Positions 54,428-55,360 of a DNA stretch of 64,000 nt are shown piece by piece. Position numbers and translations under genes: made by a program. Below the pieces are notes generated by a model that worked only from the letters and a program-made list of their open reading frames with translations, had not been told where the DNA came from and did no database searches. Position 1 is the stretch's first letter. Each line of letters opens with the position of its first letter. The DNA is from Waddliaceae bacterium (GTDB taxonomy: Bacteria; Chlamydiota; Chlamydiia; Chlamydiales; Waddliaceae), in NCBI GenBank assembly GCA_963724325.1, contig CAVRUH010000005.1, positions 96,001 to 160,000 of the forward strand, given 5' to 3'.

Positions 54428-55360
54428 ATGTTTTCAATTAATAAATTGACAGATACTGTTATATTGCCCTATAACGTAGAATCTTATCAAGAGCTCTATG
54501 CTGAAGAGTTTATAACAAGCTTTACGCATAGCGCTCTTGCCGAAGGTCCAACCGATTTAGAGATGGCCAGAAAGTTCACAAAACAGCTGAATGAGGCCGC
54601 ATTGCAAGCGAAGTTACTCTACATTTCTTTTAACGATAAAATGTTTAAAGGAAATGTACTGAAAGATGGTGCTTGTAGTGCTATTGTCTTTCGTGTAGCT
54701 AAAGAAGCCATTAGACTTCATAAATTTCTTAATCAGATTATTCAACTTAAACCCTCGAGCAGAGAAAGTAGTTTCGGGCTTCATTTTGCTCGGTATGTCT
54801 TTGAGCTAGAAAGTATGGCGACTGGAGGGAATAAAGAGCCTGCAAAGAGTGAACAGAAGATGATAAGAACCGAACAAATGGCTCTAAATATGATTACGGT
54901 CAATCGTAATGTATTAAATAAAGGCAATGCTGTTGCTGAGAAAGTTGGAGCTATGGCTCCATTTTATGGTTTAAAGGTTGTTGAGTCGAGTTCAGAACTT
55001 CGGGTAAAGAAGAATGAACAATTACAAGTTGAATTGTCACAACTAAAACTCGGGTTAATAGATGGCGTTTATATTCTAAGAATTATTCAAGAAGAATATA
55101 ATCACAAACTTGAGGTGAAAGGGCATTCCATTCTCTATATCAAAAGAGGTGAAGCTGAATATTATTTTGATCCAGCGCTAGGATGTTATCGTCTATTTGC
55201 GGAGGTCGCTAAAACGAATTTGATCTATAATGCATTGTTGAGTGCTAACGAAAGATTTGGAGTGGACACTCTGAGTTTCCATCGTTTAGTCGATGCAAAA
55301 CATAGTGATTTTTCTTCTCCTAATGAGGGATTTTTAAACATTTCAAAAGGAGAAAAATAA
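54428..55360 (+). CDS. Putative YopT/AvrPphB-like (peptidase C58) cysteine protease
   Basis: GAC (C83), GHSI (H233), YFDPALG (D248); AAGGAG RBS; no Trp residues. Confidence 0.65.
   Translation: MFSINKLTDTVILPYNVESYQELYAEEFITSFTHSALAEGPTDLEMARKFTKQLNEAALQAKLLYISFNDKMFKGNVLKDGACSAIVFRVAKEAIRLHKFLNQIIQLKPSSRESSFGLHFARYVFELESMATGGNKEPAKSEQKMIRTEQMALNMITVNRNVLNKGNAVAEKVGAMAPFYGLKVVESSSELRVKKNEQLQVELSQLKLGLIDGVYILRIIQEEYNHKLEVKGHSILYIKRGEAEYYFDPALGCYRLFAEVAKTNLIYNALLSANERFGVDTLSFHRLVDAKHSDFSSPNEGFLNISKGEK

Follow-up and report, generated by a model that had tools for sequence, protein, structure and literature searches.

The window analysed here is a stretch of 64,000 nucleotides, positions 96001–160000 of contig 5 (label C5) of genome G000, a 2.37 Mb assembly that is 84.6% complete and falls outside the group of genomes of about 1 Mb. 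Downstream of a tRNA-Leu gene it carries an open reading frame of 310 residues, followed at the very next base by a gene for an M20 metallo-amidohydrolase/peptidase and then by trpR (Table 1). The 310-residue protein, a putative protease, is encoded by the first long gene after a predicted operator and a leader; both this gene and trpR were found in a single copy in the genome.

Table 1. Features of the unit and of its surroundings, in window coordinates.
Feature	Position	Strand	Remarks
Three split housekeeping genes	47880–51326		
tRNA-Leu	53609–53693		
REP-like palindromic element	53765–53822		About 58 bases
Perfect inverted repeat	54122–54202		39 bp, G+C-rich; 3-base loop, T-rich tail
Predicted sigma66/sigma70-type promoter	54253–54281	+	TTGCAA-17 nt-TAATAT; -10 box inside operator
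Predicted TrpR operator	54265–54286		Palindrome TTGTAAT-N8-ATTACAA; matrix score 28.4 bits
Leader peptide, chlamydial trpL type	54309–54365	+	18 residues, 2 Trp; ends W-A-x-A-x-stop
Leader hairpin GGGC-N4-GCCC	54349–54360		Within leader
Complete 310-residue reading frame	54428–55360	+	
C58-like domain, predicted papain fold (residues 1–287)	54428–55288	+	Triad C83/H233/D248; Trp-free
Remnant of alpha/beta-hydrolase C-terminus (residues 288–310)	55289–55360	+	Catalytic-His motif
M20 (ArgE/DapE-like) metallo-amidohydrolase/peptidase	55361–56524	+	Signal-peptide-like N-terminus; 5 Trp
trpR, Trp repressor	56658–56951	+	TIGR01321 97.2 bits, cut-off 67.25
Two nested IS elements	57690–61700		
Two tandem proteins	61792–63761	-	334 and 286 residues

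Several other elements surround the unit. The inverted repeat, present once in the genome, lies 50 bases before the promoter and could insulate the unit against read-through. The stretch around the REP-like element has 139 blastn matches in the genome, and some of these are arrayed at a spacing of 112 or 215 bases. Downstream, the nested IS elements, of which the genome has several further near-identical copies, are bounded by an exact duplication of 441 bases that contains an ORF of 87 residues; the methyltransferase matches of the two tandem proteins beyond it are weak and all under cut-off. The three housekeeping genes upstream, which we take to be secY, rpsK and rpoA, are each split over two frames, which suggests indel errors in the assembly.

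The 310-residue protein had been read in a first-pass annotation, from its sequence, as a YopT/AvrPphB-like cysteine protease with the candidate triad C83 (DGACSA), H233 (GHSI) and D248 (YFDPALG). The translation contains these motifs as claimed, with codons at positions 54674, 55124 and 55169 and a His-Asp spacing of 15, and it is entirely devoid of Trp. Pfam and NCBIfam scans of the protein found nothing, and the Pfam C58 model PF03543 gave no match to it even at E ≤ 1; weak PF03543 matches occur in 10 of 129 relatives (best E 0.0021), and one distant relative, P0078, lies above the gathering cut-off (30.4 vs. 23 bits). The protein has no hydrophobic signal peptide, its hydropathy over 11 residues reaching a maximum of 0.84 against 3.20 for the M20 protein, in agreement with the earlier statement that a Sec signal is absent.

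The AlphaFold2 model, built from 129 sequences (pLDDT 92.1, pTM 0.89), shows a folded core that begins at about residue 11, with only some 10 N-terminal residues disordered. In this model C83 opens a helix (83–103), H233 lies on a strand (231–240) and D248 ends a neighbouring strand (243–248). The top Foldseek match is AvrPphB (E 2e-5), the sole match below 0.001, and VIA ranks the same protein first (Z 14.5, 181 aligned residues, rmsd 3.4, 14% identity, model residues 19–289 on chain residues 81–268), followed by Mcf (Z 12.1) and PaTox (11.5); tegument-like and Josephin deubiquitinases score lower, at Z 9.3 for the former and 9.3 or less overall. The AvrPphB/YopT-like papain fold of the first reading is thus recovered in a predicted model. 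Neighbours in the Atlas are PF03543 clusters (0.94), at a recognition value of 2053 that lies under the 2300 mark and makes them a lead only, and sequence searches of the PDB with the family profile returned just the esterase part of relatives (see below) or nothing.

The likeness to AvrPphB and YopT (C58, PF03543, PDB 1UKF) concerns the Cys-His-Asp order, the structural match and the His-Asp spacing of 15, which is also that of the AvrPphB triad C98/H212/D227 in the accessible text of PMC11475232. The His, the Asp and the end of the domain keep a constant offset of 21 between the two proteins, but about 47 extra residues separate the start of the aligned core from the Cys in the 310-residue protein. 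Unlike AvrPphB and YopT, it is devoid of an N-terminal pro or secretion region and of a Pfam C58 match; it has its own N-x-K-x-E-x-x-G-H signature, is linked to TrpR, and has relatives that are often fused to an esterase. The C58-like domains of Mcf, PaTox, MARTX MCF and lymphostatin, with structural matches at Z 9–12, sit in large exported toxins, whereas here a domain of 280 residues stands in a small regulated unit. The predicted fold and the triad together support the assignment of the protein as C58-like.

A word search identified 26 close relatives at 40–61% identity and an exhaustive search 184 relatives at E ≤ 0.001, 150 of which are among the matches listed. Relatives come from chlamydiae where they are named, and one record is labelled Verrucomicrobiae; a protein search of JGI metagenomes gave one locus, identical to that of genome G068. 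The family occurs in 47 of 400 scored chlamydial genomes and in none of the 29 belonging to the small-genome family. We collected 172 family proteins, of which 158 span all three triad columns. Among these the triad reads C-H-D 145 times and C-H-E 11 times (other in 2), so that 156 of 158 relatives retain it, as against 1–37% for the remaining Cys and His residues of the protein; this conservation is far above chance. Nine polar residues, among them R147, Q150, N154, K172, R218, N225, K227 and E229, are invariant or nearly so. In a midpoint-rooted tree of 157 cores, from which 15 fragments or triad-less rows were excluded, the protein falls inside a clade (support 0.84) whose 51 members are exactly those grouped earlier by rank and by eye. 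We describe these sequences as an unannotated protease family, a chlamydial branch of its own with a modelled C58-like build. One member, P0032, joins the first 220 or so protease residues to the C-terminal third of an M20 protein and lacks the catalytic His; it is a deletion or an assembly chimera, and a further sign that protease and M20 genes adjoin.

The close relatives also reveal a domain that the 310-residue copy has lost. Fifteen of the 26 are about 500 residues long with a C-terminal alpha/beta-hydrolase, ten measure 272–303 residues and one is a fragment. The natural fusion P0003 was modelled as two domains (pLDDT 93.6), the second of which resembles cutinases, PAF-AH-type lipases and a ferulate esterase. 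Such PAF-AH-like fusions amount to 19 proteins, in all of which the GHSxGG, DG and His motifs are intact, and P0057 carries a different, DLH-like alpha/beta-hydrolase. The last 23 residues of our protein, of low confidence in the model, align to the end of the esterase domain, which puts the in-frame loss at about 190 residues. An assembly error might be suspected here, given the frameshifted look of the nearby housekeeping genes, and the reads (7 runs) do not settle the junction: they gave one contig of 151 bases that shows no differences and extends 13 bases beyond the junction, too short to bridge it. Against this, the loss is in frame, the remnant tail has drifted and lost a further 11 or so residues, and in locus L080 a CGTTTAG repeat stands on both sides of the segment that is lost here, all of which fits a real deletion. 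The esterase is dispensable, ten of the 26 close relatives being stand-alone (some on short contigs) and the present copy having lost the domain.

The first-pass annotation had placed the protease at the head of a Trp-regulated unit, and the upstream region bears this out. Scored with a matrix built from 21 sites at trpR loci, which themselves range from 24.7 to 36.2 bits, the window operator is the better of two sites of at least 14 bits in the genome, and its palindrome is unique there at one mismatch or fewer. The core TGTAA-N10-TTACA is present in 21 of 30 trpR loci vs. 0.15 of 30 in shuffles; a degenerate form occurs in 116 of the 127 trpR-bearing genomes vs. 18 of the 273 others, counts in which kin are not independent. 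The -10 box of the predicted promoter falls inside the palindrome, and at the place of its TTGCAA box L081, L082 and L086 have TTGACA. Akers and Tan are said to have found in 2006 that TrpR binds the C. trachomatis palindrome. The leader peptide MKHFMIHQFRWRFWATAR ends in WRFWATAR. The W-A-x-A-x-stop ending recurs in the leaders before the relatives of G224, L082 and G050, in the Chlamydiaceae-group trpR loci L049–L051 and, in L052, ahead of a TyrP gene; the C. felis trpL ends alike in the accessible text of PMC3937554, and so do the leaders of five other trpR loci. Combined with an underlying TGGGC-N4-GCCC, it is common to the Trp leaders of L049–L052, L118 and L001–L003, and is seen in 8 of 56 operator-strand starts and in 9 matches in the whole G000 genome. 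A classical hairpin-plus-U terminator was looked for after the leader and not found; the fold z-score of the leader is -2.9 in G000 and -1.5 to -1.6 in two relatives.

A strong operator is present in six of ten close-clade loci (G000, G224, G050, L080, L082 and G068), is weak and distant in G215 and absent in G230, G315 and L085, and none of 23 distant-clade loci has one within 1.5 kb. Four of the six operator-bearing loci have the leader, L080 and G068 being without it. In G315 trpR lies between two paralogues of the protease. The operator accompanies the gene through three gene orders, including two without adjoining trpR (L082 and G068), and TrpR control of the protease unit, predicted from these sites, is well supported. 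The trpR-trpL operons of Chlamydiaceae and Simkania (trpRBA, trpR...kynU; accessible parts of PMC3937554 and PMC6504234, the latter an earlier study of the trpRBA operator question) share the class of palindrome, the leader ending and the position of trpR inside the unit, but their cargo consists of genes for trp synthesis or for kynurenine and indole salvage, where the present unit has two hydrolases.

Operator-like sites were also observed elsewhere. A second site in the genome (G000:C5:180643, L087 near 5644; 19.6 bits) lies just upstream of an unannotated ORF of 239 residues that is divergent from an RHS gene. In G195 (L076:2763–8229), of the same genus, an operator heads another unit, which encodes a beta-lactamase-family serine hydrolase, an unannotated protein of 411 residues, an Asp/Glu/hydantoin racemase and an ABC uptake system and ends convergent on trpR. 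In G039 (L077:7576–14185) a site of 19.1 bits stands at the head of genes of the shikimate pathway and one for a BrnQ-family transporter, in divergent orientation to trpR. A BrnQ-like gene in L080 was considered as a unit member and rejected for its convergent orientation.

The lack of Trp in the protein had been proposed to allow its synthesis during Trp starvation, with a chance of about 4% for a Trp-free protein of this length. The genome has 1.17% Trp, and the binomial chance is 2.6%; as a single-protein test, the quoted figure is too low, 33 of 419 ORFs of 260–360 residues in G000 (7.9%; crude ORF set) being Trp-free. The distant clade is itself poor in Trp, with 103 Trp in 24,313 core residues (0.42%) and 40 of 106 cores without any, so that one Trp-free protein says little. 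It is at the level of the clade that the argument stands: the close-clade cores contain 8 Trp in 12,772 residues (0.06%) and 45 of 51 are Trp-free, and their esterase parts contain 2 in 4,680. Per unit of branch length, changes to Trp are 0.35 times as frequent in the close clade as in the distant one (8 vs. 83, p about 0.002), compared with 0.88–1.6 for seven control residues in the same test. Low Trp content as an adaptation is therefore supported for the clade and not for the single protein, and this depletion fits the 'Down-Trp' idea of PMC3937554, a table of which gives trp enzymes with 0–2 Trp. The five Trp of the M20 neighbour, correctly counted in the first-pass annotation, and the 3–6 Trp of its close homologues oppose a strict version of the Trp-avoidance argument.

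This M20 protein lies below all named NCBIfam cut-offs (best score 193 bits vs. 381; TIGR01910 180.9 vs. 217.6), scores best to ArgE/DapE deacylase models and has the metal-site motifs; the closest solved structure among ArgE/DapE-like hydrolases is PDB 2RB7 (E 1.5e-42). Nearly all full-length close homologues share the signal-peptide-like start, as judged by hydropathy only, unlike many more distant homologues of about 360 residues; the enzyme is likely exported. Its gene lies directly behind the protease gene in six of ten close-clade loci and is absent in G068, G230 and G315. Sixteen of the 26 close relatives are apparently on the same contig as an M20 homologue among the matches listed, which is indirect, and at E ≤ 1e-40 it occurs in 6 of 401 genomes, one copy being frameshifted.

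As concerns Trp metabolism, no trpA, trpB or trpC over cut-off was found in G000 at its level of completeness, where one PLP-type match is weak (26 bits). A search for trpB in six genomes altogether found none in G000, in the other four carriers tested (G224, G050, G215 and G068, 95–98% complete) or in G195, which is without the protease gene. Salvage of indole or anthranilate was therefore rejected, and the cell is likely unable to make Trp. The genome has one chorismate-binding enzyme, two TyrP genes, with no operator near them, and two OppA-type genes. Recurrent trpR neighbours in other chlamydiae, from 28 of 56 ORFs scanned around 24 trpR loci, are TrpE-like, TrpCF, TyrP, ABC uptake and FAD oxidoreductase genes. 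A FAD_binding_3 monooxygenase of about 440 residues adjoins trpR in four of these loci (L053, L067, L074 and L075), twice with an amine oxidase; one of its motifs presumably recalls MICAL enzymes. With FAD oxidoreductases beside trpR in 4 of 24 loci, control by Trp does not prove a role in Trp supply.

The locus thus contains a real C58-like hydrolase in a conserved unit under predicted TrpR/trpL control, whose cargo consists of hydrolases. The best reading of the sequence evidence is a Trp-salvage module in the place of trp synthesis genes, and we favour, tentatively and a little short of even confidence, a protease that cuts peptides inside the bacterium and with M20 recovers Trp during shortage. 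When Trp is plentiful, TrpR would occupy the operator that covers the -10 box, and the leader would lower expression further by attenuation. Under shortage neither control would hold the unit back, and the protease, having no Trp codon, could still be translated. It would act on cytoplasmic peptides from OppA-type import or from the cell's own turnover, M20, on the outer side of the inner membrane, would remove terminal or N-acylated residues that TyrP could then take up, and in most relatives the fused Ser-esterase would provide a third hydrolase. Since the two enzymes are predicted to lie in different compartments, we infer their shared pathway from gene order only. Several facts weigh against salvage. 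Four of the ten close-clade loci are without a strong operator and three without M20; the family is Trp-poor anyway; the G000 assembly is just 84.6% complete; and known C58 enzymes are, in the accessible text of PMC11475232, narrow-specificity cutters of host proteins and not bulk peptidases. The nine conserved polar residues are moreover common to the regulated clade and the unregulated, effector-like one, which suggests one narrow substrate chemistry.

Dense conserved polar residues near the His strand would suit a rival reading with the same regulation and salvage purpose. Here the enzyme would be an amidase or acyl-hydrolase that acts on small conjugates of Trp (N-acyl-Trp, esters or short conjugates), with the fused esterase and the ArgE/DapE-like deacylase as its partners. 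Fusion to two different alpha/beta-hydrolases and the deacylase-like scores of M20 point the same way, as does G195, where genes for a serine hydrolase, a racemase and ABC uptake follow the operator. However, every top structural match cuts proteins, the esterase is dispensable and a natural conjugate is hypothetical; we consider this unlikely, if still worth weighing. An earlier proposal, that the protein is a type III substrate acting on the host, would make it an effector induced by starvation, whose cleavage of host proteins would increase the Trp available or prompt exit from a starved host; in relatives a phospholipase-like domain would be its partner. Its closest folds are effectors or toxin domains (AvrPphB, Mcf, PaTox and LifA), the genome contains yscR, M20 looks exported, the Vibrio MARTX structure 6II2 likewise pairs a C58-like domain with an alpha/beta-hydrolase, and distant relatives carry extensions at the N-terminus and are fused to ankyrin, M91 or DUF4116 domains. 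The close clade, on the other hand, is without such an extension. Its Cys stands before residue 100 in 50 of 51 proteins (at or after residue 100 in 84 of 106 distant ones; median position 76 vs. 134), an N-terminal motif shared by 23 of 106 distant proteins is present in none of the 51, and L13-P14-Y15 are conserved with the relatives beginning just 3–6 residues ahead of them. Together with the core ordered from about residue 11, this appears to leave no room for a secretion signal, and the effector reading is disfavoured, indeed improbable. A cytoplasmic protease and an exported peptidase, as the ordered, conserved protease N-terminus and the M20 start would indicate, are the likelier pair. 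Finally, the unit might have come under the trpR promoter as a passenger, or be decaying in G000, and play no role in Trp supply, as its patchy spread (M20 in few genomes, no protease gene in the congeneric G195), the adjoining tRNA-Leu and IS elements and the lost esterase domain could suggest. We give this very little credence, as the operator travels with the gene through different gene orders and even away from trpR, the clade is depleted in Trp, and the triad and frame are intact.

For the family, the salvage reading would amount to a domesticated branch of effector-like C58 proteases. This branch would have shed its secretion region and its Trp, come under the TrpR operator and trpL attenuator that control trp synthesis genes elsewhere, and moved between unrelated chlamydiae as a portable module for gaining Trp by proteolysis, a picture to which we likewise give a little less than even odds. 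No description of the protease family or of the unit was found in searches of open-access articles, nor in the accessible part of PMC3482391. The TrpR units on record start from indole, kynurenine or chorismate to produce Trp; hydrolytic salvage, if true, would be a further route subject to the same regulation, and a C58-like enzyme would serve nutrition instead of host attack. The operator and leader motifs, for their part, make a phylum-wide TrpR regulon readable.
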